A DNA stretch of 64,000 nt, taken from an uncultured Erysipelotrichaceae bacterium (GTDB lineage: Bacteria; Bacillota_I; Bacilli_A; RFN20; CAG-826). The position numbers and the translations under genes were made by a program. Of the stretch, positions 305 through 40,868 are shown piece after piece. The stretch lies in NCBI GenBank assembly GCA_902797855.1, contig CADBUI010000027.1, positions 42,639-106,638 on the forward strand, in the 5' to 3' direction. Position 1 is the stretch's first letter. Each line of letters starts with the position of its first letter. The notes beneath the pieces were generated by a model that was given only the letters and a program-made list of their open reading frames with translations, was not told the origin of the DNA and did not search any database.

Positions 305-1184
305 TATCGAATTCTTTAATACACATTTCTTTAAGTAATCTTGCAAGTTGTTTACCACGTATTTCACCAGAGGCAGCTCCGATGGAATACATTTTTTGTA
401 TTTCAGAGATTGTAAATTCACTTGTGAAGAATGTTAGTAAATTATGATGCTCTCTTTCAGAAAGAAGAGGAATCATAATCGTGTCTCTAATATATTCATT
501 CTTATATTCTTCACCGAAATCATCAAACATTAAAAGTGGAACGTTTGATAAAGCGAGGAGCCTACGAGCGAACTCTTCTTTATCTTTATAAGATAAATCA
601 ACGAGTTCTTTAATTCTACTAGGTGTGTTAATGATCGCAACTTGACCCATACCTGCACCAACAAAATCATTCGCGAAAGTAACCATCATAAATGATTTAC
701 CTACTTTGTGATTTCCCATTACATATAACCAACGGGAAGATTCACCTTTAATAATCTTTACAAATTCTTTAATAACTGGTCTTCTATTCTCGCTTTTATC
801 CATCGTTTTTGTTGATGAATATTTCCATTCTTCAGGAAAATCAGCATATAAATAATGGTTATCAAGTTTAATCTTTTCAACAATTTTATCACATGGTTCA
901 TATGAGCTTGTGAGATACGCGCCATCTTTAATTAAAACCATTTGGAGGTGAGGAATGGATTTTTCACATTTATCTATTCCAGGACAATTCTTACAATAAT
1001 GAAAATCGTTCTTATAGTCTGTTAGACGCGCGATATTATCGCGAACTTCTTTATTAGTTAGACCAAGTCTTTTGATTCTTTCATATATTTCCATATCGTT
1101 ACGAAGTTCATTAACGAGTTGACTGATATATTCTTTCATATCAACATCGTTAGTAACAAACGCCTGTGGATTTAGTCTTTCCAT
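276..1184 (-). CDS. dnaI: primosomal protein DnaI (helicase loader, AAA+)
   Basis: N-terminal Cys-rich zinc module (CKNCPGIDKC). The Walker A region LYVMGNHKVGKSFMMVTFANDF aligns with B. subtilis DnaI (LYLYGKFGVGKTF). The gene lies directly downstream of the dnaB-like gene. Confidence 0.85.
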   Translation of the reverse strand: MERLNPQAFVTNDVDMKEYISQLVNELRNDMEIYERIKRLGLTNKEVRDNIARLTDYKNDFHYCKNCPGIDKCEKSIPHLQMVLIKDGAYLTSSYEPCDKIVEKIKLDNHYLYADFPEEWKYSSTKTMDKSENRRPVIKEFVKIIKGESSRWLYVMGNHKVGKSFMMVTFANDFVGAGMGQVAIINTPSRIKELVDLSYKDKEEFARRLLALSNVPLLMFDDFGEEYKNEYIRDTIMIPLLSEREHHNLLTFFTSEFTISEIQKMYSIGAASGEIRGKQLARLLKEMCIKEFDISGVSLYRK

Positions 1185-2506
1185 TATTTTTTACCTCCTT
1201 TTTTCTTAGTTTCGATGATATTTAGCATATTCTCTAATTCATCATCACTTATCGACTCAACTGGCTCTTTTTTAGTTTCTACTGTAGTAGTCTCTTCCAC
1301 TACTTCTTCTTTTTTCTTACTTCGACTTCCTCTTTTAGATGAATTTGATGTTAGATAATTCATCGCATCTAAAGCGGTTTCTATTTCTTCACGTGCAAGT
1401 GAAGCTGAGACACTATCCGCGAAGTCTTTATTTAAGACGTTATTACATTTTTCAAGTGTGTAATCGACAACAACATTAATAACTCCAAATGGGAAATTAT
1501 ATTTCTTAGAAATAAAGTCGATTGTTCTAAGATCTCCTCCAGAAGGTTTAGAACCATTTTGAAGTAGTTCAAGATAATCCGCTGTTGGAAGTCTTTCCAT
1601 AATCTTAATCTTCTTAGATAAATCACTATTAGAAGAAAGAGATGATGTTTTAACGATATGGCGTTTTCTAGTTGATAATGTCGGCATCTTAATCTTGTTA
1701 CGACAATTCTCAGCAAGTTCAGAATAATCTAGATGTGGGTTTTCATATGGACGATAGACATCACTTACAATAAACGCCATCGCGCTTTCATCCATTCCAT
1801 ATAAGGCTGCGATTCTTTCAATTTCTTTCATATCTTTCTTTAGAAAGACACTTCTTTTGATTTGTGAATTCTCTTCAATATAACCAAAAAATTTCTCATA
1901 ATCGAAACCAAATTTAATCGGGCTTGTTTTATGTCCAAGCATCGCGCCAGTGAATTCTTTCACAAATGAAGGATCGTTATAATCAAGCGAGAAGACATCC
2001 ACAAATGAGGTTGTAATGTCTTTATATGATTCAGCGATTGATAAATCAATCGTGTATGCACTCGCTAAACGTTGGGCTTCCTTTTCACCAACAGATTGGA
2101 TAAGTAATCCTTTGAAAAGAACATCGTTAAAGAAATCTTTAGGAGTCTTAGGAGCGTATAGCACAAAGATGTATGATCTATTTTCTCCTTCGTCTTTTTC
2201 ATATGTCTTAAGTAGCCCTACTCCTTCAAGGAAATGACGGGCTGCTAAAAGTTGACCAGGAGCGACTTGCATGATGATTAAAAGTGTCTCCATAGAGTAA
2301 ACAGTTTCTTCATCTTCATTTCGTTTTTGCTTCACTAAATTTAGATAAAGAATAGTCGCTAGTGAACCAATAAGAGGTTGATAAAGCTCAATGACGACAT
2401 CCTTGTCGACATTGCTAAGTAAGCTAGCGAGTCTTATTTCGTAGAAATCTTTTGATGAAACATATTCAACCATACTTGCAAAAATACTAGCATTTCTAGA
2501 GGCCAA
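1184..2506 (-). CDS. dnaB: replication initiation / membrane attachment protein DnaB (DnaD-like, not the helicase)
   Basis: 440 aa with a Ser/Lys-rich linker. It sits immediately upstream of dnaI, matching the Bacillus dnaB-dnaI operon order. Confidence 0.7.
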   Translation of the reverse strand: MASRNASIFASMVEYVSSKDFYEIRLASLLSNVDKDVVIELYQPLIGSLATILYLNLVKQKRNEDEETVYSMETLLIIMQVAPGQLLAARHFLEGVGLLKTYEKDEGENRSYIFVLYAPKTPKDFFNDVLFKGLLIQSVGEKEAQRLASAYTIDLSIAESYKDITTSFVDVFSLDYNDPSFVKEFTGAMLGHKTSPIKFGFDYEKFFGYIEENSQIKRSVFLKKDMKEIERIAALYGMDESAMAFIVSDVYRPYENPHLDYSELAENCRNKIKMPTLSTRKRHIVKTSSLSSNSDLSKKIKIMERLPTADYLELLQNGSKPSGGDLRTIDFISKKYNFPFGVINVVVDYTLEKCNNVLNKDFADSVSASLAREEIETALDAMNYLTSNSSKRGSRSKKKEEVVEETTTVETKKEPVESISDDELENMLNIIETKKKGGKK

Positions 2507-26399: not shown

Positions 26400-27227
26400 T
26401 TACACAACTATTTCGTATGTTGGATCAGGAGGACCATAGTAAAAATAGTCGAAATCAACTAATGGCTCGAAATTTGATATTTTGGTTCCATCTTCCCATT
26501 GCAAATTAACTTTAATTAAGTTGTTTTCTTTAATGTTGCGAGTCTGTTCTTTCATAGAATCAATATATTCATCAACATCAAAAGTGTTGTAATCATAGTC
26601 AGTCAAATTATCTAACATATCCCAAAAACTTATCTGTAAATAGGGTAATTCAGGACAATCACGGAAATAACTAATTGAATCATTCCCACGAATCATAAAA
26701 TCGTGAGAAAATATGATATTAATTGAGAAATCATCTATGATATTGCTTATCAAGCCATTTTTTTCGCCATATCTCAGGCAAAAATTTGTGTACTTTAAAT
26801 GAGGTTCCTTATTCTCTCTGCGATCGTCTCTACTATTAGTACTATTTTTATAATCTGTTCTTCTTTGAAACTCACGACCAGTATATGACATGTATGGAGC
26901 CGAATTGGTAAAATATGGTGCGTTAAAATAAAAATTATTTGTTGCCGAGTTATATGGTATATGAATTACCAAACTATTATCTTTGCCAAATTCAAATGTA
27001 TCAGGCAATTGATAGGAATCTAAAATGTTTGTTTCAACACTACCTTCATAAAAACCAGTAATACTTTCGTAGACTTCATATTTAACGTATTGATACCTAA
27101 TGTTTGTGTTTTGATCAAAAAAAATTATTTCCTTAATATTTTCCATACCGGAACTATGACACGAATTCAATAAAATAACTGGAAGAATTGAACTAAATAC
27201 CGCGATTTTCTTAATATTATTTTTCAT
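26400..27227 (-). CDS. exported lipoprotein; candidate cognate immunity protein of the Rhs toxin
   Basis: Signal peptide plus lipobox LLNSC. Its start overlaps the Rhs stop (ATGA). No homology recognised. Confidence 0.55.
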   Translation of the reverse strand: MKNNIKKIAVFSSILPVILLNSCHSSGMENIKEIIFFDQNTNIRYQYVKYEVYESITGFYEGSVETNILDSYQLPDTFEFGKDNSLVIHIPYNSATNNFYFNAPYFTNSAPYMSYTGREFQRRTDYKNSTNSRDDRRENKEPHLKYTNFCLRYGEKNGLISNIIDDFSINIIFSHDFMIRGNDSISYFRDCPELPYLQISFWDMLDNLTDYDYNTFDVDEYIDSMKEQTRNIKENNLIKVNLQWEDGTKISNFEPLVDFDYFYYGPPDPTYEIVV

Positions 27228-30200
27228 ATACTCTTCCTCTTAATTATAAAGCCACAAATAAATTTTCGACCAACTTCATTTACTAAATCCACATTCCATC
27301 TATTCGAAAGGCTCGAAAAATATTTAGTCGTCTCGTTCGGAAACATGTACCCATTAAGTTCATAAAACATCGAATTAGAAATATCGCTAATCGGTATTAT
27401 CATAGTAGTATGACTTGTCAAACTAGGAATATTTGTTGAATTAGGAATAAATCCATTTATATATGTCGAAATTATAGCGCAATCCATTGAAAATTCGCCA
27501 TAGTCAGATATCAAATCCTCTACACTAGTTCTTATTGGACCAACTTCTATCTCGTCATATTTTGTGAGCATCTCGTGAATGTGGGTTGGGAAAGCGCCAA
27601 GCTGACCAAATAATAGAGATTTCTTTTCGCATTCAGCGATTAAATTAGGGAATAACAAATCATCTTCTTCGGCGGTGAAATGTCTAAGAGCTGGAAGATT
27701 ACAGAATAAAAGGGCATTATATGAAGTGATTATTGTGCAACCAGCTTTGTTGATATTTTTTGAACCAAACTTTAATGATTCTGCCTCGGTTTTCGCCTGA
27801 TTATTGAAATATGCTGTAGATGTAGTGTCTCCAGAGATTGTTGTCAATAAAGTATCTTTTAATCGTGGGTTTTGTGTCCAAACCTCTACATTATGTTCAT
27901 AGTTTGATTTAGAAATTGATAAAATAACATACTCTAGTGGGCTTATATAGCAAGTCCACCAACCAACATTATCTATATTAAACAAATTAGCATTAAGCAA
28001 CTCATTTGCGATAATATCGTGAACAACCATTAATTCATATAAATGATTGCCGGCAAAATGTGTAATAAATGAACCTATAGAATTCATGGTGTTTGTAGTT
28101 ATTTTTTTAATGTAGTCTATAATGTTCGAATTATTATTAGATACAAGTGTTGATAACAAAGGGGCACCTTGTGTTAATAAGGCAATACTGACTATTGGAT
28201 TGGTAATTATTGCAACTACAACAGTAACTGCAGTGACTACAGCGGTTAAACCAATCAAAAGCACATCCAAAATAGAGAATTTTCCACTTGGATCGCTTCT
28301 CATGATAGGATTGTTATTACAATATGAGAATAGGTTAAACTGAGCAGAATCTAATTTATCTTTGATAGTGTCATAGATATTATCTGGAGATATAAATCTT
28401 CTTAACAATGGCGAGTAATACCTATTGATTAAATAATATAATCCTGATTCAGAGTCATAATAATAACCCTTGTAGTAGAAATGGTTATAACCAGCAATGC
28501 TAGTTTCTTCATTTATAGAAACGAGCTTACCAAAGTCATCATAAGAATAAGAAGCAACAATTTGGCCAGATGAATCTATAATCTTTCTAATTATTCCTAA
28601 TATGTCTCGATAATAATAGTAATAATTTGACGAATTACTCTTATCTAATCTAAATCCAATTAGTTTATCGTTTTCGTCATAAAGATAAATGATTGTAGCG
28701 TCATTAGACTTTTCAACTAACAGGCGATTATCTTCATAGAAATAATTGATAACGTTGTTACCGTGTTGTTTTTTAATTCTACGATTTTGATAATCATATA
28801 AATAAGTATATGTTTCGTTATTCACTGATACTGCTGCTAGTTTATCGGCAAGCCAGGAAAGCTCTAAATCTCCAATCGAAGATGGATAAAGCGATTCGTC
28901 ATATGCATAAGTTAATTGGACATAATCTACATTATTCTTCTTAATTCCTATCAATTTATGACCGAAATGGGAATCGTAAATATAATCATAGATATTGCCA
29001 CTCGAATCGCTCACTTTTAAAATATTACCAAGAACATCATATTCATAAAGTGTTGGGTCTTGATTATTTAATTTAGATGAAACGAGTCTATCAAGATAAT
29101 CATATTCGTAATGAATTTCATCATTATTACAAGTAACGCAAGATACATTATTGTTCAAATCATAACCATATGATCTAGTTTCAATAGAACTTGTTTCGGA
29201 AAGAACCTTTGTCGAAGTTCTACCTTGGATAGGATTATTCTCGTTATCAAGTGGGGTAATATAGTTAAGTGATTTTGTAACACTACCGATGTTAGTAGAT
29301 ACGACTCTACCCATCGAGTCAATTTCTTTATAATTTGAGAATACTCGAATCGAAGAATTGGAAATTGCTTGATGATCAAGACAATAGATAAAATCCTTCA
29401 AGTATCCGTTTAAATAATCGGTGAAAACTGTATAACTAGAATTATTTGCAGTTGCACCCATAGATACATGATCTAAAGAATCGTTGAATGATAAGGAATC
29501 TATCAACGCATCATTAATATATATTTCTAGAGTTGAAGATAAACATTTCAACCTAAGAGAATACCAAGTGTTAATAGATGCATTAAAAGTAGTAGAAGTT
29601 ACGTTACCGTTGATATTAATTCTTAAATTACCATTATATAAATGAATGTTGAGTACACTACTAAAACTGGAGTCTGATAATGAAACAATAGTTTGATTAG
29701 ACCCGAATAACTTAGGAATAAAGAAATCAATTTTTAGATCAAAATCAGTAAACGGGTTAAATTGGTACACTAATCGACTCGTTTTCCCTAATAGCGAATA
29801 TTCATTTGAAAAAGATTTGTAAACGTGTCGCTTAAGTGAATTATCCCATAGGAAATCGTTTGGTTTATCAAACTTATCGTTTGTGATAGTTTCACCACAA
29901 ACAAGAGGAGAAATGTTTTTGCTAGAAATGTAGTTATCATCCAAAGACACATAATCGTAATCGTTATTTGACAAAGAAGATGATTTGACTCCCGAATAAG
30001 TGTGAATTAAATAAGGCTTAATTAAGTAATCGTATCCTTCATTATAGATTGATTTTATTTCAGTAGGAGAATAGGCATAACATCCAAAACTTAGATGAAG
30101 GATTTTTGTATAGGAAATAATCGGTGATCCAAAAGGAGTATTGAGTGGGCGAATAAAAGTTTCTGGACCAATCAGCAAATAATCAGCGTATTCAAAATAT

Positions 30201-33200
30201 AGCGGATTATTAGAACCATCAGTCAATGTTAACAATAATTCTCCGTTTAAGTAAAACTCTCCAATCGTATCATTTCCAACTTGTTTCATTATAAGTGCAC
30301 ACATCATCCAATCGGAAATAGTCGCGCCTAACGGTTGACTTGTTTGTGTATAATTTCCTAATTTTAAAGTGATCGTTCCGCCTGTATCAAAGTAGGCATA
30401 ACATGTTTTTGCAGAACCGGGCATGTAATAGAAACAAAGAATTGGAACACCTGAAAATAGTCCATCAAATTTCACCCACGCAACAGCGGATCTTGTAGAT
30501 GCAAATTTATTGTCCCATTCGCTCTTGTTAAAAGTTTCGCCTGCGATAGTTTTGCTTCTAGTAGAATTAGCTTCTAATAAATTATATGCAATGATTTTGC
30601 CGCTAGCTCTAATGCTCGCTACTTTTTTATGAAGTGTTTCATCAAAAATATATTTTAAAGAAGTGGACTCACATAAATTGTCATATGGTTGGGCGCCGTA
30701 TCTACTTTTTAAAGATAGACCACCATCAACTTGATCATCATTAAAAACATAATCAACTTTATTGATAAATTCTCGAGGTGATAAATTATTAATCTCATAA
30801 TTTCTGACAAAGTCAGTTGATTCATTTAGATTAATAGCGGATACATTTTTATGTTGGATTTTATTTAAATTATCGTAATAGTTTGAGTAAGAGAAACCTA
30901 ATGATGAAGAGACACTATTTATTAACTTGTCTCTTGAATAAGAAATTGTGATAGTTTCTAAATTCTGTGTATTTACGATTTTATTTAATCGATTAAAAAT
31001 GTCATACGAAAATTCTGCAATAAGTTCATCCTCAGTATAAACATTTGCCAATCGATAAGATTCATCGTAAGTATATTTGGTGTGATAATAGCTATCACTT
31101 AATATTGTTTTTGTATCAAGTAATGGGCAACCATCAATAATTACTCCATCGATATAACTCTGTGAAACGATATGAGTACAATTGTATGAAGCGTTGCTTA
31201 GTCGACCATACTCGTCATAGCTAAATTCATACTTATCATCATTGGTTAGATTAATTGCAACTAAGTTATTTTGGTTATAACTAAAAGATATTGTTCCACT
31301 GCTATCGACATATCTACCTCGTTCAAGTTCAACGATTTTACCGCTTGTGTCATAAACTTTTCTAATTAATGATGCGTTAGGCAAACAAGTCATAATGCAT
31401 TGTCCAAACTCGTTATAACAATAAGATGTCACTTTTCCTAGGTCATCTATTTTGTTATGACTACCATCTATATTATTTTCAGATGTAACAATGCTTAATC
31501 CTTCAGAATTTGTGAATGTGATACTGGTTTCGTCATCATCACAATCTATTGAAACTTGATTACCAAAATTATCGCTAATTTCAATAGGTTTACCATCTTC
31601 GTTATATGAATAAGTTAGATTAGAACCAAGATTTGTTTCACTGCTGCATAAATTACTATTTAAATAGCTGTTTGTTTGAGATAACCCATTTGAATCAATC
31701 GCAACAAGTTTCCCTCCGTCATCATAAGAATACATTTGACACTTCTCATCAATAAATAATTGAGCGCAAGTAACAAGTGCTTCTTTATATCCCTGTCGCT
31801 TAATAGTTATAAAAACTTGTATAAAATCAATATCTGCAACAATTGAAGTGGTTAATAGCTGCCAAGAATCTTGTTCCTTAACAGCGTGAACAATGTAATC
31901 TTTATCATCGAATCCATGAATGGTTAGTTGCACACTAAAATCGTTATTTTGATCTAAATCAGCGTTAACCAAACACGAGAAGGTTATTGTCTGCCCTCTT
32001 TTTCCAACAATATTAACATTTTGAGTAAGCGAGGACACGATTGGTTCTGCGCTTGGAATAAATCTTAATGAAGGGGCATTTATTGAAAAGACATTATCCG
32101 ATGGGGAAGTTGGCAAAACTTCAACATGATTATTATCGCTTGCGGTCCAATTCCTAATAGGATTATTAATGTCGCCCTCTTCATTAAAGAAGCTATTTTG
32201 AACATAGTTAATTTGGTTAGATGAAGAAGATTCATCAAGTGATAAAGAATTAAATTTAATGAAAGAATTATTTGCGATTTCGCATTCCAATATAAGCGAC
32301 GATTCGTCTGGAATTATAATGTTTTCTTCGTTTAAATTGTGCCACTGATTGTCACCAATAAGATTGAACGAGACTGTAGAAGTATGCGTTGTTTTTGTGG
32401 AACGATAGAAAGGGTGTGGACTATTTAGTGGGTGAGATGGTATTTGTTCTGTTGTTACGTAGGTCATCTCAATATTAAGAGTTTGATTCTTGTCTGTTTT
32501 ATAATAGCCCTTCAAACGATAAGTTCCATAATGAGGTCCACCCAAATCCTGGGAAATAGTCTCATTTGATGTACTACTATTTGTGAAAACTATTGAGGTT
32601 TTACCATCTATTTCTTCGATATCGTTATCTAAGACAACATCAACGCTAGATAATTCCCAAATTTCATAATCATTGGAATTAATGTTGTTATTAATCAAAT
32701 TACGATAATACGCAAGAAGCCTATGGGTATTTGTTGGTAAATGAACACAATTCTCTGAATCTCGCGGATCTTCTATTAATGAGTATGAATTGGAGGAGGA
32801 AATATAAGAAGAATCAACCACATTAGATGGTGTTCCATCATTATTAAAATAATATGTTTTTTCTCCACTAGTATCATTAATGGTTGCAGACATATCATCG
32901 TAAGAAATTAGCATAGGATTTAATGGGGAAGAATTATTATTAAAAATCACTCTTGGTAATATCTTAATTAAACGATTATCTAAATATTCTAATAAGCATG
33001 ATTTGCCGGATAATTTGTCGATAATTTCAGAGATTTTAGATTCATTATTATAGAATATAGAAATATCCTTAATAAGAACTTTGTTTTCATTTGGCTCATT
33101 AGTTGGATCAAATTCAAGCCTATACATCGAAATATTTTTAATTAATCCATTAGAATAGGCGATATCAGAAATATAACCTTTAGTGGACGTTATGCTACAA

Positions 33201-34297
33201 ATTTTTGGTAACTCATTAGGAACATTATCACTATAGTTAAGAGTAATAACATCATCTTCGTTAGTGATACTTATCAGTTGTTTAACGTTATTATTATTAA
33301 CTGAAACGTCTCGATATTGGAAAGTGCTTTCCCTTCCATTTGGTGATTTAGATTTAATAAAGATGATTTGATTAGCATATAAATTAAATTCAAGCGTTGA
33401 TTTATTCTTATAGTGAAGGTGGTAATTAGTGTTATCAAAAGTAATATATGAACCATCTTCAAAACAATAATATGCAAAATCATCCACAATTCCTAAAGTG
33501 TCTAAATCTGATCTTTCGGTGAATTTTGTATATTTTAATTTTGTGCCCAAAGAATCTATTATTGTGAATGTATCATTATTAAATTCGCAATAGCGATAAG
33601 TAGATAAATTCCATCCGCCAAATTCCTTTCCACCAAACAAAGATGAAGAATAATCTAATGACAAATTAAAAGAATCATTTACAAGATTAGGAATAGTTAG
33701 GTTTACACTTAAAAGAAGATGTCCATAATTAAGTGAAACCAAACCGGAAATATTTTTTCCTAAAAAATCATCTAATTTGTAATAAGGTAGATAAGAATGA
33801 TATCCACCCTTTTCCTGGCATTCAAAATCAATATAATCGACATTTCCAAACGTTGGATGAGGAAACATCATAAGGGATTTGTTAGGTGTCACAAGTTTCA
33901 TGTATAAAGACTTATTCTTCACATCACCAGAAACACTTTTAACAAATTTGGTAATATCAAAAACAACATAACTTTCAACATCGGGGATGATTGATGAAGT
34001 AGCTTGGCCAAGTCCAGCACTAACTAAATCAATTAGATTCCAATTCGTATCATATAAAGCAAAGACTAAGCCATATGACAATGTTGCAAAGAAACAGGTA
34101 ATTAAACATTTTTGGATATGGTAAGCACTCAAATCGAGATTTTGGCCTTTAAACGTTAATTTAACTGTCGAATTAGAATTAATTGTTTTATATAAAGCGG
34201 GATAGGAAATGGTATTGAATTGATCATTATCCGAATCGCGAAATGAAGTTGATAAATGAATCTGGTAATTAGTATTAGTAAATATTTTCATAATCAA
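27224..34297 (-). CDS. Rhs/YD-repeat polymorphic toxin (2357 aa) with variable C-terminal toxin domain
   Basis: Dozens of YD repeats (YSYDDFGKLV, YTYDESYRL, ...). Rhs core RYYSPLLRRFISPDN plus the demarcation motif YCNNNPIMRSDPSGK, followed by a unique 351-aa C-terminal region. Confidence 0.9.
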   Translation of the reverse strand: MIMKIFTNTNYQIHLSTSFRDSDNDQFNTISYPALYKTINSNSTVKLTFKGQNLDLSAYHIQKCLITCFFATLSYGLVFALYDTNWNLIDLVSAGLGQATSSIIPDVESYVVFDITKFVKSVSGDVKNKSLYMKLVTPNKSLMMFPHPTFGNVDYIDFECQEKGGYHSYLPYYKLDDFLGKNISGLVSLNYGHLLLSVNLTIPNLVNDSFNLSLDYSSSLFGGKEFGGWNLSTYRYCEFNNDTFTIIDSLGTKLKYTKFTERSDLDTLGIVDDFAYYCFEDGSYITFDNTNYHLHYKNKSTLEFNLYANQIIFIKSKSPNGRESTFQYRDVSVNNNNVKQLISITNEDDVITLNYSDNVPNELPKICSITSTKGYISDIAYSNGLIKNISMYRLEFDPTNEPNENKVLIKDISIFYNNESKISEIIDKLSGKSCLLEYLDNRLIKILPRVIFNNNSSPLNPMLISYDDMSATINDTSGEKTYYFNNDGTPSNVVDSSYISSSNSYSLIEDPRDSENCVHLPTNTHRLLAYYRNLINNNINSNDYEIWELSSVDVVLDNDIEEIDGKTSIVFTNSSTSNETISQDLGGPHYGTYRLKGYYKTDKNQTLNIEMTYVTTEQIPSHPLNSPHPFYRSTKTTHTSTVSFNLIGDNQWHNLNEENIIIPDESSLILECEIANNSFIKFNSLSLDESSSSNQINYVQNSFFNEEGDINNPIRNWTASDNNHVEVLPTSPSDNVFSINAPSLRFIPSAEPIVSSLTQNVNIVGKRGQTITFSCLVNADLDQNNDFSVQLTIHGFDDKDYIVHAVKEQDSWQLLTTSIVADIDFIQVFITIKRQGYKEALVTCAQLFIDEKCQMYSYDDGGKLVAIDSNGLSQTNSYLNSNLCSSETNLGSNLTYSYNEDGKPIEISDNFGNQVSIDCDDDETSITFTNSEGLSIVTSENNIDGSHNKIDDLGKVTSYCYNEFGQCIMTCLPNASLIRKVYDTSGKIVELERGRYVDSSGTISFSYNQNNLVAINLTNDDKYEFSYDEYGRLSNASYNCTHIVSQSYIDGVIIDGCPLLDTKTILSDSYYHTKYTYDESYRLANVYTEDELIAEFSYDIFNRLNKIVNTQNLETITISYSRDKLINSVSSSLGFSYSNYYDNLNKIQHKNVSAINLNESTDFVRNYEINNLSPREFINKVDYVFNDDQVDGGLSLKSRYGAQPYDNLCESTSLKYIFDETLHKKVASIRASGKIIAYNLLEANSTRSKTIAGETFNKSEWDNKFASTRSAVAWVKFDGLFSGVPILCFYYMPGSAKTCYAYFDTGGTITLKLGNYTQTSQPLGATISDWMMCALIMKQVGNDTIGEFYLNGELLLTLTDGSNNPLYFEYADYLLIGPETFIRPLNTPFGSPIISYTKILHLSFGCYAYSPTEIKSIYNEGYDYLIKPYLIHTYSGVKSSSLSNNDYDYVSLDDNYISSKNISPLVCGETITNDKFDKPNDFLWDNSLKRHVYKSFSNEYSLLGKTSRLVYQFNPFTDFDLKIDFFIPKLFGSNQTIVSLSDSSFSSVLNIHLYNGNLRININGNVTSTTFNASINTWYSLRLKCLSSTLEIYINDALIDSLSFNDSLDHVSMGATANNSSYTVFTDYLNGYLKDFIYCLDHQAISNSSIRVFSNYKEIDSMGRVVSTNIGSVTKSLNYITPLDNENNPIQGRTSTKVLSETSSIETRSYGYDLNNNVSCVTCNNDEIHYEYDYLDRLVSSKLNNQDPTLYEYDVLGNILKVSDSSGNIYDYIYDSHFGHKLIGIKKNNVDYVQLTYAYDESLYPSSIGDLELSWLADKLAAVSVNNETYTYLYDYQNRRIKKQHGNNVINYFYEDNRLLVEKSNDATIIYLYDENDKLIGFRLDKSNSSNYYYYYRDILGIIRKIIDSSGQIVASYSYDDFGKLVSINEETSIAGYNHFYYKGYYYDSESGLYYLINRYYSPLLRRFISPDNIYDTIKDKLDSAQFNLFSYCNNNPIMRSDPSGKFSILDVLLIGLTAVVTAVTVVVAIITNPIVSIALLTQGAPLLSTLVSNNNSNIIDYIKKITTNTMNSIGSFITHFAGNHLYELMVVHDIIANELLNANLFNIDNVGWWTCYISPLEYVILSISKSNYEHNVEVWTQNPRLKDTLLTTISGDTTSTAYFNNQAKTEAESLKFGSKNINKAGCTIITSYNALLFCNLPALRHFTAEEDDLLFPNLIAECEKKSLLFGQLGAFPTHIHEMLTKYDEIEVGPIRTSVEDLISDYGEFSMDCAIISTYINGFIPNSTNIPSLTSHTTMIIPISDISNSMFYELNGYMFPNETTKYFSSLSNRWNVDLVNEVGRKFICGFIIKRKSI

Positions 34298-35169
34298 AAC
34301 ACCTTCAAGTTGTTATTAAATAATTCAACAGCAAAACTATTTTCGTTAAACATTAGATCGTTCACCACTACATCAAACGGCCGATTGAGTCGATTAGATA
34401 GATAGGTTTTTATTTCGTGTGATATGTTATTAATAAATTTTCCATTCCTAGAGAGTTCACAATATATATCAACATCACTGAATGATGTTTGCTCATTTTT
34501 AGCGTATGAACCTAGAAGATACAAATGTAAGATATAATAATTCTTCTTTAGAAAAGCTTCGCAAGAGATAATCTCATTTACTAAAGATTCCGTAGAAATC
34601 AAAGGATACTGTTTATTCAAACTATTAGTGCGTTCATACACCTCAATAAGCGTTTCTTTAATCAATGATTTGTCAAAAATCATTTTCTTAATATCGCCTT
34701 TCCTAAAAGCAAAAGGAAAGCTCTTATGAACAAACAATGGAATATTTACTATTGTTAATGATATCTCTTGGCATAGTTCGTATTGTTCAAACACACTGAG
34801 GCAACGAACCAGCAAACCTTCAAAGGATGAAAACGTTAACAGTTCATTTGCTTTTATCAATAAGTGAGATAGCTCTTGCTTCTGACTACTATCTAGGTTT
34901 AGCTCACTAACTGAATTAAAATAACTAACAACATAGTCGAATGATGCTTGAGCGTCATCAATAACCATTTGTTGATGCACCATTTTATTAAAAATAGAAA
35001 ACATCTCTTCTGTTTTGTTTTCAGGAGTTATTGAAATATCACCTTTATAAAGCTTCTTTAGCCGAGAATATGATTGTTTATAATCAAAATCGTGGTAAAG
35101 ATATTCCACAAATTTAAAAGGAATCTTAGGATTATACTCCGATGATAACATTATTTTTTCAGTCATCAC
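34294..35169 (-). CDS. protein with C-terminal minimal nucleotidyltransferase (Pol-beta superfamily) domain; first gene of the Rhs cassette
   Basis: LYLLGSYAKNEQTSFSDVDIYCEL...RPFDVVV matches the hG[GS]-x9-13-Dh[DE]h MNT signature. The ~200-aa helical N-terminal region is unassigned. Its stop overlaps the Rhs start (ATGA). Confidence 0.55.
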   Translation of the reverse strand: MMTEKIMLSSEYNPKIPFKFVEYLYHDFDYKQSYSRLKKLYKGDISITPENKTEEMFSIFNKMVHQQMVIDDAQASFDYVVSYFNSVSELNLDSSQKQELSHLLIKANELLTFSSFEGLLVRCLSVFEQYELCQEISLTIVNIPLFVHKSFPFAFRKGDIKKMIFDKSLIKETLIEVYERTNSLNKQYPLISTESLVNEIISCEAFLKKNYYILHLYLLGSYAKNEQTSFSDVDIYCELSRNGKFINNISHEIKTYLSNRLNRPFDVVVNDLMFNENSFAVELFNNNLKVF

Positions 35170-35171
35170 TA

Positions 35172-35180
35172 ATTATACCA
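35172..35180 (-). promoter_or_regulatory. extended -10 promoter (TGGTATAAT) for the Rhs cassette, likely giving a leaderless transcript
   Basis: Minus strand TGgTATAAT-tagtg-ATG. No SD is present and the start codon lies ~7 nt after the -10. Confidence 0.4.
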
Positions 35181-35253
35181 AAACTGTAATCAAAATTCAT
35201 AATATATTAAATATAGATATACAAAATTGCGTAATTATTTGTATAATTAACCT

Positions 35254-35733
35254 ATGTCCAAAAAGGTCGAAAATAAGAAACTTAAAATCAATCCAAAGCG
35301 AATAATTCTCATATTTGTTGCTTTATTTTTTGTTTTTGAAGCTATCTTTTATTTCACTCTTCAACCTTGGTATTTAGGTGATTGGTATCCGTTTGATAAA
35401 TTACCATTTTATCTATACACGACTGGTGTAGGTGCTTTATCAGTAATATTCTGCATTGTGTCTATAACACAGACTTACTATATTGTTGATAAATCTTGCA
35501 TCATTCATAACAAGATGGGACATGAGTATCGTTATCGTTTTTCTGAGATGCTATATATCGATGAAGAATGGTCAAAAAAACATAAGATGCTTCTATTTTA
35601 TTTAGCGGATGGGAAATCTAAATTTTTAGCGTTCGACCGCGATGGAATAATCTTTGATTATGCGCTTACTTACGCGGTCCATAGAATGAGCAAAGAAGAG
35701 TTTCAATCTCGTTATCCAAATGTTAGACTTTAA
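35254..35733 (+). CDS. small membrane protein with two TM helices and a bacterial PH-like (YdbS/YdbT-like) domain
   Basis: Two N-terminal hydrophobic helices followed by a ~100-aa soluble domain. TGTATAAT lies 6 nt before the ATG, suggesting a leaderless mRNA. Confidence 0.45.
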   Translation: MSKKVENKKLKINPKRIILIFVALFFVFEAIFYFTLQPWYLGDWYPFDKLPFYLYTTGVGALSVIFCIVSITQTYYIVDKSCIIHNKMGHEYRYRFSEMLYIDEEWSKKHKMLLFYLADGKSKFLAFDRDGIIFDYALTYAVHRMSKEEFQSRYPNVRL

Positions 35734-35751
35734 CATATTGTTTACAAAACA

Positions 35752-35792
35752 TATTTTATTGTGATAAAATCATTAAGCGTTTTTAGAAAGTA
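35752..35792 (+). promoter_or_regulatory. promoter of rpmB
   Basis: TTTACA, ~17-18 nt spacer, TGaTAAAAT (extended -10). Confidence 0.4.
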
Positions 35793-35802
35793 GGTAGAAA
35801 TT

Positions 35803-35991
35803 ATGTCAAGAGTTTGCCAAGTATCAGGTGTCGGTCCAAAAAGTGGTAACAATCGTAGCCACTCCATGATTGCGACCCGTCGCGTTTGGAATGCAAATTT
35901 ACAAAAATATAAAGTTGTAATCGATGGAAAAGAAGTGACAGTCAAAATGACTGCACGTGCTCATCGCGCACTTCTTAAAAACGCTAAATAA
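35803..35991 (+). CDS. rpmB: 50S ribosomal protein L28
   Basis: MSRVCQVSGVGPKSGNNRSHSMIATRRVWNANLQK... Confidence 0.9.
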   Translation: MSRVCQVSGVGPKSGNNRSHSMIATRRVWNANLQKYKVVIDGKEVTVKMTARAHRALLKNAK

Positions 35992-36007
35992 TCCTGATTA
36001 AGAAGAA

Positions 36008-36035
36008 ACGACGTCCTTTAGGACGTCTTTTTTTA
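36008..36035. terminator. bidirectional terminator between rpmB (+) and gpsA (-)
   Basis: GACGTCC-ttta-GGACGTC followed by TTTTTTT. Confidence 0.6.
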
Positions 36036-37016
36036 TTCTGAGATGAGTTTCCTATTGAATAGAGAAACCACTGCTTCTTTAGGATCAACTCCTTCATAGA
36101 TAACTGAATATACAGCATCTACGATTGGCATTTTAATATTTAATTTAGTAGAGAGTTGCTTAGCGGCCACTAAAGCGTTAACGCCTTCAACAACCATCCC
36201 CACTTCTTTGAGTGTTTCTTCAAGTGACTTACCTTTTCCAAGAAGCTCACCTGCGTTATGGTTACGAGAATGTCTACTTGTTGCAGTGACAACAATATCT
36301 CCAATACCAGTTAAACCAAAGAATGTATGTTCATCGCATCCAAGCTTATAGCCAAGTCGAGATATCTCTGCAAGTCCACGGGTGATAATAGCAGCTTTCG
36401 CGTTATCTCCAAAACCCATACCATCACTCATACCGGCTGCTAAAGCGATGATGTTTTTAAGCGCTCCACAAAGTTCAACACCATATATATCTGTATTTGT
36501 GTAGACTCTAAGAACATTATTTGAAAAGACTTTTTGAACTTCTTTCGCAACTTCTTCATCTTTAGATGAAGCGACGATGAGAGTTGGTAGACCAATCGCC
36601 ACTTCTTCGGCGTGAGTTGGTCCACTAAGGGCAACAATTTTATATCCTTTACCAAGTTCATCTTCAATGATTTCACTCATCGTGAAAAGAGTATCTGGTT
36701 CAATTCCTTTAGCGACGCTAACAAGGATTTGATCTTTATTAACAATATCTTTAACTCTATTAGCGACACTTCTAATCGCTACGGAAGGAGTAGCGAAAAT
36801 AACAATATGGGAATTAGTAATGACATCTTCGATCGTATTAGTGAACTTGATCGAATCATTAATGACACAATCTAAGTGTTTGTGTCTATGAGTAGTTGAT
36901 AAAGATTCAACTTCCTCCTTGCTAGGAGAATATACAAATAAAGAATATCCACTATTAGCAAGCATATTAGCTAAAGCAGTACCCCATGTTCCAGCGCCTA
37001 TAATTCCTATTTTCAT
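36033..37016 (-). CDS. gpsA: NAD(P)H-dependent glycerol-3-phosphate dehydrogenase
   Basis: MKIGIIGAGTWGTALA Rossmann N-terminus; 327 aa. Confidence 0.9.
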   Translation of the reverse strand: MKIGIIGAGTWGTALANMLANSGYSLFVYSPSKEEVESLSTTHRHKHLDCVINDSIKFTNTIEDVITNSHIVIFATPSVAIRSVANRVKDIVNKDQILVSVAKGIEPDTLFTMSEIIEDELGKGYKIVALSGPTHAEEVAIGLPTLIVASSKDEEVAKEVQKVFSNNVLRVYTNTDIYGVELCGALKNIIALAAGMSDGMGFGDNAKAAIITRGLAEISRLGYKLGCDEHTFFGLTGIGDIVVTATSRHSRNHNAGELLGKGKSLEETLKEVGMVVEGVNALVAAKQLSTKLNIKMPIVDAVYSVIYEGVDPKEAVVSLFNRKLISE

Positions 37017-38370: not shown

Positions 38371-39233
38371 TTTGAATACCTCTCTTTCCTATAAGGAAGT
38401 TCATTAAGTAACTTTAAATATATTTGATAGGCTGATTTAGATAATTTACCAGTTTCAATTTCTTTTTTGACTGCGCACTCTTTCTCGTTTTGATGTAGAC
38501 AATCTGAGAAATAACAATTTAGATATAAATCATTATATCCTGGGAAATAGTGAGCAATATCTTCTTTAAAGATATCAAGTTCTAAAGAAGAAAACCCAGG
38601 AGTGTCCCCAATAAATCCATTTAAATACGGGAGAAGAATAACTTCTTTAGTTTTATGTTTTCCCCTTCCTAAGGCAGTTGAATATTCCCCAATATGGCGG
38701 GAATAACTAGGATCGATTTCATTAATTAATGAGGATTTACCCACTCCAGTTTGACCCATAATAATATTGACTTTATTATCTAAAACTTTCTTAATTTCAC
38801 TTATTGAATTTTCATCCTTATTTGAAGTTAAGAAAACTTTGATACCAAGTTTTTCTAAATCAGATTTAAGTTCATTAACTTTAGTTAAGCCAGTTAACAT
38901 ATCAATTTTAGTAAGCACGATAACAGAAGGAACAGCGTTCATATTCGCATATGTTAAAAATTTATAGATAAGTTCTTCTGATAAATTAGGTTCCACTACA
39001 CTCATAACGATAATTAATTGGTCAACATTTGAGCATCTAGGTCTAATGAGTTCATTTTTCTTATCTTTCACATCGATAATCACTAAAGTTTCATCATCAA
39101 AAATAACGTCATCACCGACGTTAAGATGCTTATTTTTAAACTTAAGACTTCCCTTAGGAAAGACATTATAATTCACTCCGGAAGAATAAATGGTATATAT
39201 TCCAGCGTTATTTGCGACAATTTTACCTTCCAT
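38367..39233 (-). CDS. rsgA: ribosome small-subunit-dependent GTPase A
   Basis: Circularly permuted GTPase (GQTGVGKSSLINEI) with C-terminal zinc-finger cysteines. Confidence 0.85.
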   Translation of the reverse strand: MEGKIVANNAGIYTIYSSGVNYNVFPKGSLKFKNKHLNVGDDVIFDDETLVIIDVKDKKNELIRPRCSNVDQLIIVMSVVEPNLSEELIYKFLTYANMNAVPSVIVLTKIDMLTGLTKVNELKSDLEKLGIKVFLTSNKDENSISEIKKVLDNKVNIIMGQTGVGKSSLINEIDPSYSRHIGEYSTALGRGKHKTKEVILLPYLNGFIGDTPGFSSLELDIFKEDIAHYFPGYNDLYLNCYFSDCLHQNEKECAVKKEIETGKLSKSAYQIYLKLLNELPYRKERYSK

Positions 39234-40114
39234 TATTTAAACCCAAACAAACGTTTGAACCAGTTTTGTTTTTCACCTTTAAAGTTGGTTTTGTTTGCAA
39301 TAGCAGCTTCAATCGCTACTTTCATTTCTAAAGCGCTAGCGTATCTTTCTTTTGGATTTCTCTTACATGCTTTAAGAATAATCTTATCGATTTCTTTAGG
39401 AACACTTGGAGAATATTTTGTAGCGCTTGGGAATGGTTTTTTAATATGACTCATCGCAATGTCAATTGCGCGACCTTCTTCAAAAGGAAGTCGACCTGTT
39501 ACTAGTTCAAAGAAAGTAACTCCAACTGAATAGATATCAGATTGAACGGTTACTTGTTTTCCACTACAAACTTCTGGAGCTAGATAAAAGACTGAACCAA
39601 GGATTCCTTTTTCGGTTTTGGTTTCATCAATATTAGCGTCTACCGCAATACCAAAGTCCGCAAGTTTAATAGTTCCATCTGCGAGATAAAAAATATTTTG
39701 TGGCTTAATATCGCGGTGAATAATTCCATGGTTGTGAATGTAATTCACGGCGTCTAATAATTGAACCATGATTTGGCATGATTCATATACAGTTAATCTA
39801 GTTAAGAAAGTTAATTTTTCTGCTAAGGTTTGACCTTTAATATATTCATAGGCCATATATGGTCGATCATCATAAGTTCCTTGGTTATAAACTTTGATGA
39901 TGTTTGGATGATTCATGGCCGCACAGCTCATAACTTCATGTTTGAAACGATTGACGTTTTCTTCATCTCCAATAAGTTCTTCGCGCATTATTTTAATCGC
40001 CACAACACGCTTAGCGACAAAATCAGTCGCTTCAAAAACTTCCGCCATACCTCCGGTACCGATGCGGCTAGTGATGCGATATCTATCATCAATCCTATCG
40101 CCAATTTTAACCAT
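39233..40114 (-). CDS. Hanks-type Ser/Thr protein kinase, kinase domain only (no TM or PASTA)
   Basis: GTGGMAEVF...AIK, HRDIKPQN and DFGIA motifs. Start taken at MVKIGDRI, overlapping the PP2C stop. Confidence 0.85.
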   Translation of the reverse strand: MVKIGDRIDDRYRITSRIGTGGMAEVFEATDFVAKRVVAIKIMREELIGDEENVNRFKHEVMSCAAMNHPNIIKVYNQGTYDDRPYMAYEYIKGQTLAEKLTFLTRLTVYESCQIMVQLLDAVNYIHNHGIIHRDIKPQNIFYLADGTIKLADFGIAVDANIDETKTEKGILGSVFYLAPEVCSGKQVTVQSDIYSVGVTFFELVTGRLPFEEGRAIDIAMSHIKKPFPSATKYSPSVPKEIDKIILKACKRNPKERYASALEMKVAIEAAIANKTNFKGEKQNWFKRLFGFK

Positions 40115-40868
40115 TATCGATACTCTCCCAGTATGCGATAGCGATATTATCGCTACCACCATTACTATTTGCGATTCCAATTAGTGTATCAATCTTTTGT
40201 TCAATTCTTTCGTTTGTGGAAAGCGCCGCATGGATTTCACTTTCAGTCGCGTTATTGTATAGTCCATCACTACATAATAGTAATGGAGCCTTAATATTTG
40301 GAATTGTGGTAATTTTAAATGAAACGGATGGGAATGTTCCAATCGCATTCATAATAATATGTCTATCTTTAGATACTCTAGCTTCTTCTGGAGTCATCTT
40401 TCCAGTTCTAACTAGATATTCAACATAAGTTTGGTCTTCAGTAAGTTGCTTTAAATTTGCATATCTAACTGAATAAGCTCTTGAGTCACCAACATTTACA
40501 ATGTAAATGACATCTTTATATAAGAGGGCTAAAACAAGGGTTGTGCCCATGTTTTTATATTCTGGATTGGAATTAGCTTCGTTATAGACCACACTATTAG
40601 CGTATCTAACGGTCTTAGATAACCATGCTCTAACGGAAAAATTAGAGAAGAAACCAGGTTTTTTTCTAAATTCTTCACTTATAACATCGATGCAAAGTTT
40701 AGAAGCGTAGTCACCTTTAGAATGACCACCCATACCATCACAAACGCACATTAAAACATCGCCTGAGGCGTTTGAAAGAATGATGGCTTGGTCTTCGTTA
40801 GTGATTCTAACTCTACCAATATCCGTCTTATATGCGTATTGACCTCTGATATTAATTACCTTTTTCAT
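40107..40868 (-). CDS. PP2C-family Ser/Thr phosphatase
   Basis: MCVCDGMGGH...; pairs with the kinase as in stp-prkC. Confidence 0.85.
   Translation of the reverse strand: MKKVINIRGQYAYKTDIGRVRITNEDQAIILSNASGDVLMCVCDGMGGHSKGDYASKLCIDVISEEFRKKPGFFSNFSVRAWLSKTVRYANSVVYNEANSNPEYKNMGTTLVLALLYKDVIYIVNVGDSRAYSVRYANLKQLTEDQTYVEYLVRTGKMTPEEARVSKDRHIIMNAIGTFPSVSFKITTIPNIKAPLLLCSDGLYNNATESEIHAALSTNERIEQKIDTLIGIANSNGGSDNIAIAYWESIDNG

Follow-up and report, generated by a model that had tools for sequence, protein, structure and literature searches.

Known C39-type toxins and the locus studied

The characterisation of papain- or C39-type peptidase toxins is recent, and those characterised so far are all cytoplasmic effectors that cleave topoisomerases and belong to Gram-negative T6SS or CDI systems. 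Among interbacterial toxins, the characterised C39/PLCP examples are Cpe1 of E. coli and StbD-CT of Citrobacter rodentium. Both cut GyrB/ParE at a Gly-Gly site, in the cytosol, and their immunity proteins, Cpi1 and StbI, bind the toxin; the C39 toxin domain of StbD-CT is moreover able to auto-process (PMC12136450; bioRxiv 10.64898/2026.05.07.723447). A C39-like papain-fold class carried by Rhs proteins of Firmicutes, Tox-PLC39, was predicted computationally in 2012 (Zhang et al., PMC3482391). An earlier note on the DNA studied here, made from the sequence alone, had recognised no named toxin family in the region of interest, which, given Tox-PLC39 and the two toxins characterised since, was too strong a statement. 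The family described below is nevertheless set apart from the characterised toxins by its lack of a Pfam model or name, its low-GC Bacillota hosts and its surface-exposed partners.

For a Gram-positive precedent, PMC6193138 describes the TelC-TipC pair of Streptococcus intermedius, in which a lipid II phosphatase of the T7SS has an immunity protein anchored in the membrane. TelC resembles the toxin proposed here in being a Gram-positive interbacterial toxin whose site of action, the inner wall zone, lies outside the membrane, and which is blocked by a surface-located immunity protein. It differs in being a phosphatase on an LXG/T7SS carrier, whereas the toxin studied here is a predicted cysteine peptidase on an Rhs carrier, and the folds are unrelated.

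The Rhs protein and its C-terminal module

The window (the whole stretch of 64,000 nucleotides that was analysed) contains the following features in and next to the Rhs gene:

34294..35169 (-), upstream partner gene, 291 aa, with a C-terminal Pol-beta-type nucleotidyltransferase domain (PF18765 and PF01909 matches)
27224..34297 (-), giant Rhs ORF, 2357 aa
28280..28324 (-), end of the Rhs core with the demarcation and autoproteolysis motif YCNNNPIMRSDPSGK, residues 1992-2006 (translation, TIGR03696)
27227..28279 (-), Rhs C-terminal module F2007-I2357, 351 residues, all sequence after the core
28139..28279 (-), hydrophobic pre-toxin segment FSILDVLLIGLTAVVTAVTVVVAIITNPIVSIALLTQGAPLLSTLVS, residues 2007-2053, ~47 residues (Kyte-Doolittle)
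27941..28138 (-), linker or pre-domain, residues 2054-2119 (missing from the AF2 model or of low confidence in it)
27227..27940 (-), predicted papain-fold (C39-like) cysteine peptidase domain, residues 2120-2357
27227..27391 (-), hypervariable toxin C-terminal tail, residues 2303-2357 (divergence from the L001 allele)

The Rhs-associated core model TIGR03696 (NCBIfam) matches residues 1919-2005 of the protein (E 5.5e-19), and the core therefore ends with ...YCNNNPIMRSDPSGK at K2006. The C-terminal module follows directly after the core and its PxxxxDPxG cleavage motif, the string ...NNNPIMRSDPSGK ending at residue 2006. The stretch from residue 2007 to 2357 is best explained as the toxin module of a polymorphic Rhs protein whose host is a low-GC Gram-positive (Bacillota), the gene content of the surrounding DNA being that of a low-GC Bacillota chromosome. 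The earlier reading of these 351 residues as an Rhs C-terminal toxin module agrees with the core ending immediately before them, and the strings singled out at that time (FSILDVLLIGLTAVVTAVTVVVAIITNPIVSIALL, NKAGCTIITSYNALLF, HIHEML and YDEIE) are all found in the translation. The Rhs protein shows neither a recognisable signal peptide nor an LXG or PAAR domain, and no secretion genes were found nearby. The stop codon of the 291-aa nucleotidyltransferase gene overlaps the Rhs start, and the same kind of nucleotidyltransferase ORF lies directly upstream of a related Rhs gene (P0005, locus L029).

Relatives, carriers and distribution

A first genome scan with window-specific peptides found no loci, and a word-indexed homologue search returned two near-identical remnants only, a profile of 11 sequences doing no better. 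A profile search of 1.84 billion proteins recovered nine distant relatives (E 5e-11 to 4e-4), and a genome scan 26 further loci. Because these relatives and loci were recovered, with the cysteine invariant, the domain is more than a chance resemblance. Two candidates for stand-alone orphan toxins, P0001 and P0002, were rejected because deletions have fused them to the beginning of the nucleotidyltransferase gene upstream, and P0007 was rejected as a toxin relative, its match being only via the N-terminus shared with the upstream nucleotidyltransferase-type gene.

Other Rhs proteins also end in the peptidase domain, as do DUF4280 (PAAR-like) proteins and proteins whose helical N-terminus is LXG-looking, and signal-anchored carriers occur as well. 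Its presence in other Rhs or LXG toxins, proposed in the earlier note as a check, was thus found for Rhs and for LXG-looking carriers. The N-termini of L003 and L009 are LXG-like by eye and gave no Pfam match, and are therefore termed LXG-looking only. One toxin domain thus moves among carriers of the Rhs, the DUF4280/PAAR-like and the LXG-looking type.

The family, which is small and unannotated, occurs in low-GC Bacillota only, its hosts being mostly gut Lachnospiraceae and other Clostridia. It is without a Pfam model, and no retrieved member has a name given by its source. Stand-alone members of ~240 aa in Lachnospiraceae lie in housekeeping neighbourhoods, with neither a signal peptide nor an adjoining lipoprotein, and the family is therefore not exclusively one of exported toxins. 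By eye, residues 2054-2119 of the window protein are like a helix that relatives have conserved ahead of the domain (FIPxxVSN... / ...ADxIHNxLTN); the L001 and L002 variants have lost this linker by deletion.

Predicted catalytic residues and fold

Four residues of the domain, whose codons were verified on the DNA, are each invariant in 31/31 relatives, at a mean column identity of ~20%:

27797..27799 (-), Gln2167 (YFNNQ), predicted oxyanion-hole residue
27737..27739 (-), Cys2187 (NKAGC), predicted nucleophile
27410..27412 (-), His2296 (LTSHTTMII), predicted general base
27353..27355 (-), Asn2315 (FYELN), predicted third triad residue

Q2167-C2187-H2296-N2315 follow the residue order of papain-like (clan CA) enzymes, Gln...Cys...His...Asn/Asp, with 109 residues between Cys2187 and His2296. 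AF2 run on a 3-sequence alignment gave a pLDDT of only 30; the model of the domain considered here is of medium confidence. In this model Cys2187 starts helix 87-99, His2296 lies within strand 194-205 and Asn2315 closes the strand that follows (208-214), so that the modelled placement of Cys, His and Asn is the canonical papain layout. The model thus has the cysteine at a helix N-terminus and a beta-sheet bearing the histidine, as in the clan CA fold, and the globular part is predicted to be a papain-fold thiol enzyme.

The earlier note had proposed the NKAGC cysteine as the nucleophile, a choice now supported by its invariance, and had given it the histidines of HIHEML, ~52 residues away, and YDEIE as partners in an NlpC/P60- or CHAP/papain-like hydrolase. 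These partners are not conserved: H2239 is His in 7/31 relatives and Ala in 14/31, H2241 is His in 2/31, and YDEIE is not conserved either, the invariant histidine being H2296. No Pfam match to NlpC/P60, CHAP or amidase families was obtained for the window protein or the 31 relatives. On both counts, an NlpC/P60- or CHAP-type peptidoglycan amidase or endopeptidase built on a Cys-His dyad ~52 residues apart is highly unlikely. Only membership in these families and the HIHEML dyad are thereby ruled out, and peptidoglycan stays a candidate substrate. Of the earlier proposal, the papain fold stands and the NlpC/P60 and CHAP assignments fall. Neither of the findings that it had named as decisive against it was made, since a papain-like fold is predicted and no homology to nucleases or deaminases came to light.

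Relationship to C39 peptidases

From the relatives and the medium-confidence model, the fold appears nearest to C39-like peptidases, and not to NlpC/P60 or CHAP. The window protein itself gave no match to Pfam, and with E allowed up to 1 still none to PF13529 (Peptidase_C39_2), which includes, e.g., the C39-like peptidase 3erv of B. anthracis. The PF13529 model weakly matches the domains of 9/31 relatives at E below 0.1 (best E 7.4e-6); the full-length L019 protein scores 25.7 bits against the gathering threshold of 24, below which most family members score. PF13529 proteins are not known to act as toxins. Membership in PF03412, the bacteriocin-processing Peptidase C39, was not found; PF03412 is the N-terminal domain of an ABC transporter and cleaves double-glycine leader peptides. 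Searches of the window C-terminal module and the adjacent lipoprotein against Pfam, NCBIfam and PDB sequences yielded nothing meaningful, a DUF3943 match being disregarded as weak (18 bits vs a cut-off of 27), and profile searches of PDB sequences with alignments A3 and A4 gave chance matches only.

Among the described toxins, Tox-PLC39 is alike in having a C39/ComA-related papain fold at the C-terminus of polymorphic toxins of Firmicutes, including RHS-repeat proteins. It is described with a C-H-D triad, whereas the window family has an invariant Asn in third place and an invariant Gln, the two being compared by description only.

The downstream lipoprotein

The gene that follows the Rhs gene is:

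26400..27227 (-), predicted immunity gene, 275-aa lipoprotein, signal MKNNIKKIAVFSSILPVILLNS followed by C (lipobox pattern, ATGA overlap)

The ORF starts MKNNIKKIAVFSSILPVILLNSC, and its N-terminus matches the pattern of a lipoprotein, MKNNIKK-IAVFSSILPVILL-NS-C23, with a basic region, a hydrophobic region and a lipobox cysteine. The Asn at -2 of the lipobox is atypical, the L001 homologue having LSSSC. No match to the lipoprotein was found in Pfam or NCBIfam, and an exact look-up of its sequence returned no record. Its ATG overlaps the TGA of the Rhs gene (ATGA), and AGAGGAAGAG is located at 27231-27240, 4 nt upstream of the ATG; the lipoprotein gene is translationally coupled to the toxin gene.

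A lipoprotein homologue of 54% identity adjoins the toxin remnant in L001 and L002, and the lipoprotein gene is retained in strains in which the Rhs gene is deleted. When the window is compared with the L001 allele, identity is 88% over residues 2109-2302 of the toxin and only 28% over the tail (residues 2303-2357), against 54% for the adjacent lipoprotein and 92-97% at the DNA level for the flanking genes. The toxin tail and the lipoprotein thus diverge together between strains, and the tail is a candidate determinant of immunity-protein specificity. The ATGA overlap, the co-divergence with the tail and the retention after Rhs loss are together in line with the lipoprotein as the predicted cognate immunity protein.

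The Rhs body was independently deleted in the two related strains, and the P0002 remnant is frameshifted and truncated, as might be expected if the cassette were inactive or decaying and no longer a toxin in the window lineage. In the window, however, the 2357-aa ORF is intact, with all invariant residues present and the coupling to the lipoprotein gene preserved, which makes decay there extremely unlikely.

Site of action

In all toxin-type loci with a readable downstream ORF (20/20), the start of that ORF encodes a lipobox, a signal peptide or else a TM anchor. As the partner is extracytoplasmic throughout, the toxin probably attacks the outside of rival Gram-positive cells. An extracytoplasmic target, as the earlier note had suggested from the single lipoprotein partner, is thus supported family-wide. 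For Tox-PLC39, no immunity family is listed except Imm-SuFu (Bacteroidetes), whereas the partners in the window family are lipoproteins.

Cpe1 and StbD-CT, which alone among C39-type interbacterial toxins have been characterised, are cytoplasm-acting, and the window toxin could be a C39 protease of the same sort, with Gly-Gly cleavage of an essential cytosolic protein such as GyrB/ParE, the hydrophobic segment as an entry device and a lipoprotein that intercepts the toxin before entry. Several observations make this unlikely. Cytoplasm-acting toxins normally need cytosolic immunity, and the partner at every readable locus is extracytoplasmic; the lipoprotein therefore argues against an action like that of Cpe1 or StbD-CT. 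Sequence homology to Cpe1 or StbD-CT was not found, and the family profile, run against PDB chains at E up to 10, recovered neither StbD-CT nor any other solved chain. The domain is larger by ~100 residues, and more decorated, than the compact Cpe1/ComA type, and stand-alone cytosolic family members occur without immunity genes. Known PLCP toxins are catalogued only from Gram-negative T6SS and CDI systems, whereas the window toxin has a Gram-positive host. Finally, Cpe1 and StbD-CT are paired with toxin-binding immunity proteins and use a soluble entry domain, whereas the window toxin has a lipoprotein partner and a TM-like segment before the domain.

The hydrophobic segment and a proposed mode of action

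Residues 2005-2053 are the most hydrophobic part of the whole Rhs protein, with a 19-residue Kyte-Doolittle peak mean of 2.79, in agreement with the TM-like stretch that had been pointed out after the Rhs demarcation motif. From hydropathy we infer that the length of residues 2007-2053 would suffice for a TM hairpin of two helices, broken at TNP. A hydrophobic segment likewise follows directly after DPxG in the Rhs toxins P0004, P0005, P0006 and P0011, and one also precedes the peptidase domain in the non-Rhs, Sec-type relatives P0008, L010 and L026. The segment is absent from most other carriers (LXG-looking and DUF4280 proteins, and the Rhs proteins L011, L015, L016 and L024), and membrane tethering is therefore not essential to the family.

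Pore formation by a hydrophobic C-terminal domain is known among Rhs proteins, for example from Tse5. The strength of the segment and its recurrence in the closest Rhs relatives could thus mean that it is itself toxic by membrane insertion or depolarisation, the peptidase serving self-processing or release only, as auto-processing by a C39 toxin domain is known from StbD-CT. This is very unlikely, however, as most carriers keep the lipoprotein partner without any TM segment, the Q-C-H-N set is invariant across all carriers, and L001 has lost the TM segment yet kept the peptidase domain and the immunity gene.

The best explanation overall, in which our confidence is somewhat better than even, is an Rhs-released, membrane-held C39-like peptidase toxin that acts on the envelope and is countered by lipoprotein immunity. 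Rhs cores autoproteolyse at the demarcation motif and release the C-terminal module. Here, cleavage of the core at DPSGK would release the module, whose hydrophobic segment may insert in the cytoplasmic membrane of the target cell and hold the enzyme on the outer face. The enzyme would then cut an envelope substrate close to the membrane, at a peptide or amide bond; candidates are the stem peptide or cross-bridge of peptidoglycan or lipid II, or an essential membrane protein, cut in its ectodomain. In the producer, the co-translated lipoprotein would be held at the outer leaflet of the membrane and neutralise toxin that arrives there, probably because it binds either the substrate cleft or the hypervariable tail of the toxin.

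More tentatively, and with our own doubts on the whole prevailing, the locus may be the founding example of a family of envelope-acting C39-like peptidase toxins of Gram-positives, in which a TM hairpin plants the Rhs-borne enzyme on the outer face of the victim membrane and surface lipoproteins are the only effective antidote, unlike the topoisomerase-cleaving C39 toxins of Gram-negatives. If envelope action is true, it would be a new enzymatic mechanism in Gram-positive interbacterial antagonism, offering a defined catalytic set and a candidate specificity region.

Diversity of the downstream partners

The downstream partners belong to several families that are mutually unrelated by BLAST or hhalign. 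A similar N..NIR[FY] motif occurs in the lipoprotein family of the window and in the L030, L033 and L034 lipoproteins. As hhalign gave a probability of 14% only between them, a shared immunity family is not claimed. At the L031 locus, the lipoprotein genes form a five-gene array.

Genetic organisation of the Rhs locus

The Rhs protein, a 2357-aa product of the ORF at window 27224..34297 (-), contains RHS/YD repeats (Pfam PF05593), and its Rhs-associated core (NCBIfam TIGR03696) was matched at residues 1919-2005 (E 5.5e-19), which places the end of the core at ...YCNNNPIMRSDPSGK (K2006). The segment at window 27227..28279 corresponds to exactly the 351 residues after the core (F2007-I2357), hereafter the toxin module, and all strings quoted in an earlier note on this region were found in the translation. 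No signal peptide and no LXG, PAAR or other trafficking domain could be recognised in the Rhs protein, its first N-terminal hydrophobic segment (residues 63-82) is weak, and no secretion-system genes were found within the 64-kb window. It is flanked by two genes in the same orientation:

34294..35169, (-), immediately upstream of Rhs: 291-aa ORF, nucleotidyltransferase domain of Pol-beta type at the C-terminus
26400..27227, (-), next ORF after Rhs: 275-aa lipoprotein, whose start, MKNNIKKIAVFSSILPVILLNSC, is a lipoprotein-type signal

The stop codon of the nucleotidyltransferase ORF overlaps the TTG start of the Rhs gene, and the lipoprotein ATG overlaps the Rhs TGA (ATGA), with AGAGGAAGAG located 4 nt upstream of this ATG. 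A nucleotidyltransferase-type ORF (L029 3..710) also precedes the related Rhs gene P0005 on an unrelated metagenome contig. Such ORFs may encode a conserved partner of this subfamily of signal-less Rhs proteins; a chaperone, an adaptor or a regulator would be examples.

The surroundings are those of an ordinary low-GC (about 33%) Bacillota chromosome, with gpsA, glgC/glgD/glgA, leuS, coaX, DnaB/DnaI-type helicase loaders, EzrA, CcpA and ATP synthase genes around the island. They include a 315-aa Ser/Thr kinase (window 39233..40180 (-)) matching the Stk1/PknB PASTA family over its kinase domain only (model positions 2-273 of 563), and thus apparently without extracellular PASTA repeats.

Relatives and carriers of the domain

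Neither the toxin module nor the lipoprotein matched any Pfam, NCBIfam or PDB sequence. A word-indexed protein search retrieved only P0001 and P0002 (72-73% identity), and nine matches (E 5e-11 to 4e-4) were added when 1.84 billion representatives were searched exhaustively with a HMMER profile. Of these, P0004, P0005, P0006 and P0011 are further Rhs proteins that end in the domain, P0003 and P0010 are short proteins, P0008 is signal-anchored and P0009 contains the domain twice; the ninth, P0007, was rejected as a toxin relative, its match being confined to the nucleotidyltransferase-derived N-terminus of P0001 and P0002. A genome scan for the conserved peptide GC[GTE]I[IM][AT][TSL]YN yielded 26 loci. 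Lachnospiraceae and other Clostridia account for most of them (gut MAGs, Mobilisporobacter senegalensis), and two MAGs labelled Myxococcota/Myxococcales are also represented. An onward search from one of these members returned 31 more proteins, all of which lack both a precomputed Pfam domain and a name assigned by the source.

At these loci the domain forms the C-terminus of Rhs proteins (L011, L015, L016, L024), of DUF4280 (PAAR-like) proteins (L004, L005, L019; Pfam E down to 6e-24), of proteins with an LXG-looking helical N-terminus that has no Pfam match (L003, L009), and of signal- or TM-anchored proteins (L010, L026). The presence of one domain at the C-terminus of several carriers is the signature of polymorphic toxins.

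Stand-alone versions of about 240 aa occur in Lachnospiraceae (L006, L007, L012, L018, L020, L023, L025, L028). They start near a conserved FIPxxVSN motif, have no delivery domain, signal peptide or adjacent lipoprotein, and lie among housekeeping genes, which indicates that the family also has non-toxin or differently deployed members. The toxin domain may have arisen from such a housekeeping form; alternatively, these proteins may be orphan cassettes. Two further loci (L021 3872..6085 and L027 5290..7650; also P0009) encode the peptidase domain twice in tandem, followed by a conserved protein of about 760 aa, in MAGs labelled Myxococcota/Myxococcales. The family is otherwise restricted to Clostridia, which makes this taxonomic placement odd, and the MAGs may be mis-binned.

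Catalytic residues and fold

In an alignment of 31 domains (mean column identity 20%), Gln2167, Gly2186, Cys2187, Asn2194, Gly2231, Gly2234, His2296 and Asn2315 (full-protein numbering) are invariant, and Glu2224 and Pro2237 nearly so. The candidate catalytic cysteine of the earlier note, C2187, was thus correctly chosen. The histidines of HIHEML, proposed as its partners, are not conserved (among the 31 domains, His is found 7 times and Ala 14 times at H2239, and His twice at H2241), and YDEIE falls in a variable, gapped region of the alignment. The conserved cysteine and histidine are separated by 109 residues, and the histidine and Asn2315 by 19; the resulting order, Gln...Cys...His...Asn, is that of canonical papain (PMC10318531).

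AF2 on a 3-sequence alignment gave no usable model (pLDDT 30); on an 11-sequence alignment it gave a pLDDT of 74.2 and a pTM of 0.77. In the latter model, Cys2187 is at the N-terminus of a helix, and the beta-strand containing His2296 is followed by a strand with Asn2315 at its end. Together with the conservation, this topology suggests a catalytic geometry for the Cys-His-Asn set.

Fold matches of the AF2 model (score)
Staphopain C: 10.2
PCAT1 C39 peptidase domain: 9.8
UfSP2: 9.7
Bacterial Josephin 'clippase' (PaJOS): 9.7
LahT-type double-glycine protease: 9.7
ComA peptidase domain: 9.6
B. anthracis C39-like peptidase 3erv: 9.5
Pseudomurein endoisopeptidase PeiR: 9.3
StbD CdiA-CT C39 toxin: 8.1

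Foldseek was in agreement (staphopain, E 5e-4). In a Pfam scan, Peptidase_C39_2 (PF13529) was matched by 9 of 31 relatives' domains (best E 7.4e-6), one full-length relative exceeding the gathering threshold (25.7 vs 24 bits). The fold and PF13529 matches together place the domain in the papain/C39-like cluster, as a decorated branch that has no Pfam model.

Compared at the level of class description, the nearest named class is Tox-PLC39, a C39/ComA-related papain-fold toxin domain of Bacteroidetes, Chloroflexi and Firmicutes that is linked to RHS repeats and has a C-H-D triad (Zhang et al. 2012; PMC3482391), whereas the third residue of our domain is Asn. Two characterised C39/PLCP toxins, Cpe1 (PMC12136450) and StbD-CT (bioRxiv 10.64898/2026.05.07.723447), come from Gram-negative T6SS and CDI systems and cleave a GyrB/ParE Gly-Gly site in the cytosol. 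The window domain has its fold in common with them, but it is larger, Gram-positive and partnered by surface lipoproteins. A family profile search of PDB sequences detected no sequence similarity to any solved chain.

Hydrophobic segment and predicted surface partners

Hydrophobicity along the Rhs protein is highest at residues 2005-2053 (peak 19-residue Kyte-Doolittle mean 2.79). The closest Rhs relatives (P0004, P0005, P0006, P0011) have strongly hydrophobic segments immediately after DPxG, and P0008, L010 and L026 have one 50-80 residues ahead of the catalytic Cys; it is absent from the LXG-looking and DUF4280 carriers and from the Rhs proteins of L011, L015, L016 and L024. With this patchy occurrence, the segment is an accessory that recurs with the domain but is optional. 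Judging by its hydropathy, it might act as a tether or insertion device that would keep the enzyme at the membrane surface.

The immediately downstream ORF could be read at 20 toxin-type loci (the window, L001, L002, L003, L004, L005, L008, L009, L010, L014, L016, L017, L019, L024, L026, L030, L031, L033, L034 and L035), and at every one of them its product carries an N-terminal lipobox signal, TM anchor or signal peptide. These partners fall into several groups that are mutually unrelated by BLAST or hhalign; L009 has two copies. The strongest evidence that the toxin may act outside the cytoplasmic membrane is this recurrent partner localisation, found independently across unrelated partner families and at least three kinds of carrier. 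TelC-TipC (PMC6193138) is a characterised Gram-positive precedent for such surface-partner logic. At L031 (7288..9719), the Rhs toxin P0011 is followed by a tandem of five lipoprotein genes, paralogues of 131-150 aa with 42-68% pairwise identity, which looks like a poly-immunity array.

Deletions and divergence in related strains

P0001 and P0002 were rejected as independent toxins, as blastn of their loci (L001 1..738 and L002 1..2107, against window 27392..36747) identified them as deletion products:

L001: bases 1-156 = window 35232-35077; resumes at window 27986; implied deletion about 7.1 kb
L002: bases 1-1701 = window 36747-35047; resumes at window 27859; implied deletion about 7.2 kb

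In both strains the first block ends within the start of the nucleotidyltransferase gene. The deletions are independent, with junctions at 6-8 nt of imperfect microhomology, and each removed most of the nucleotidyltransferase gene, the entire Rhs body and the TM segment, fusing the first 30-45 nucleotidyltransferase codons to the peptidase domain, which is retained in frame in L001 and is frameshifted and truncated in L002. Both loci retain the lipoprotein gene, as expected if it protects against neighbours still carrying the toxin.

A 159-aa ORF without Pfam match lies between rpmB and the island (window 35254..35733 (+)). The block it lies in shares 97% DNA identity with L002, a strain without the Rhs gene, where the homologue (1015..1494), likewise of 159 aa, has a hydrophobic, TM-like stretch. 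This ORF is probably outside the toxin system.

Between the window and L001, identity is 92-97% at the DNA level for the flanking genes and 88% for toxin residues 2109-2302, but only 28% for the final 55 toxin residues (window 27227..27391) and 54% for the lipoprotein (window 26400..27227 (-)). This joint divergence of the C-terminal tail and the lipoprotein suggests that the tail could be the specificity interface, co-evolving between toxin and immunity protein.
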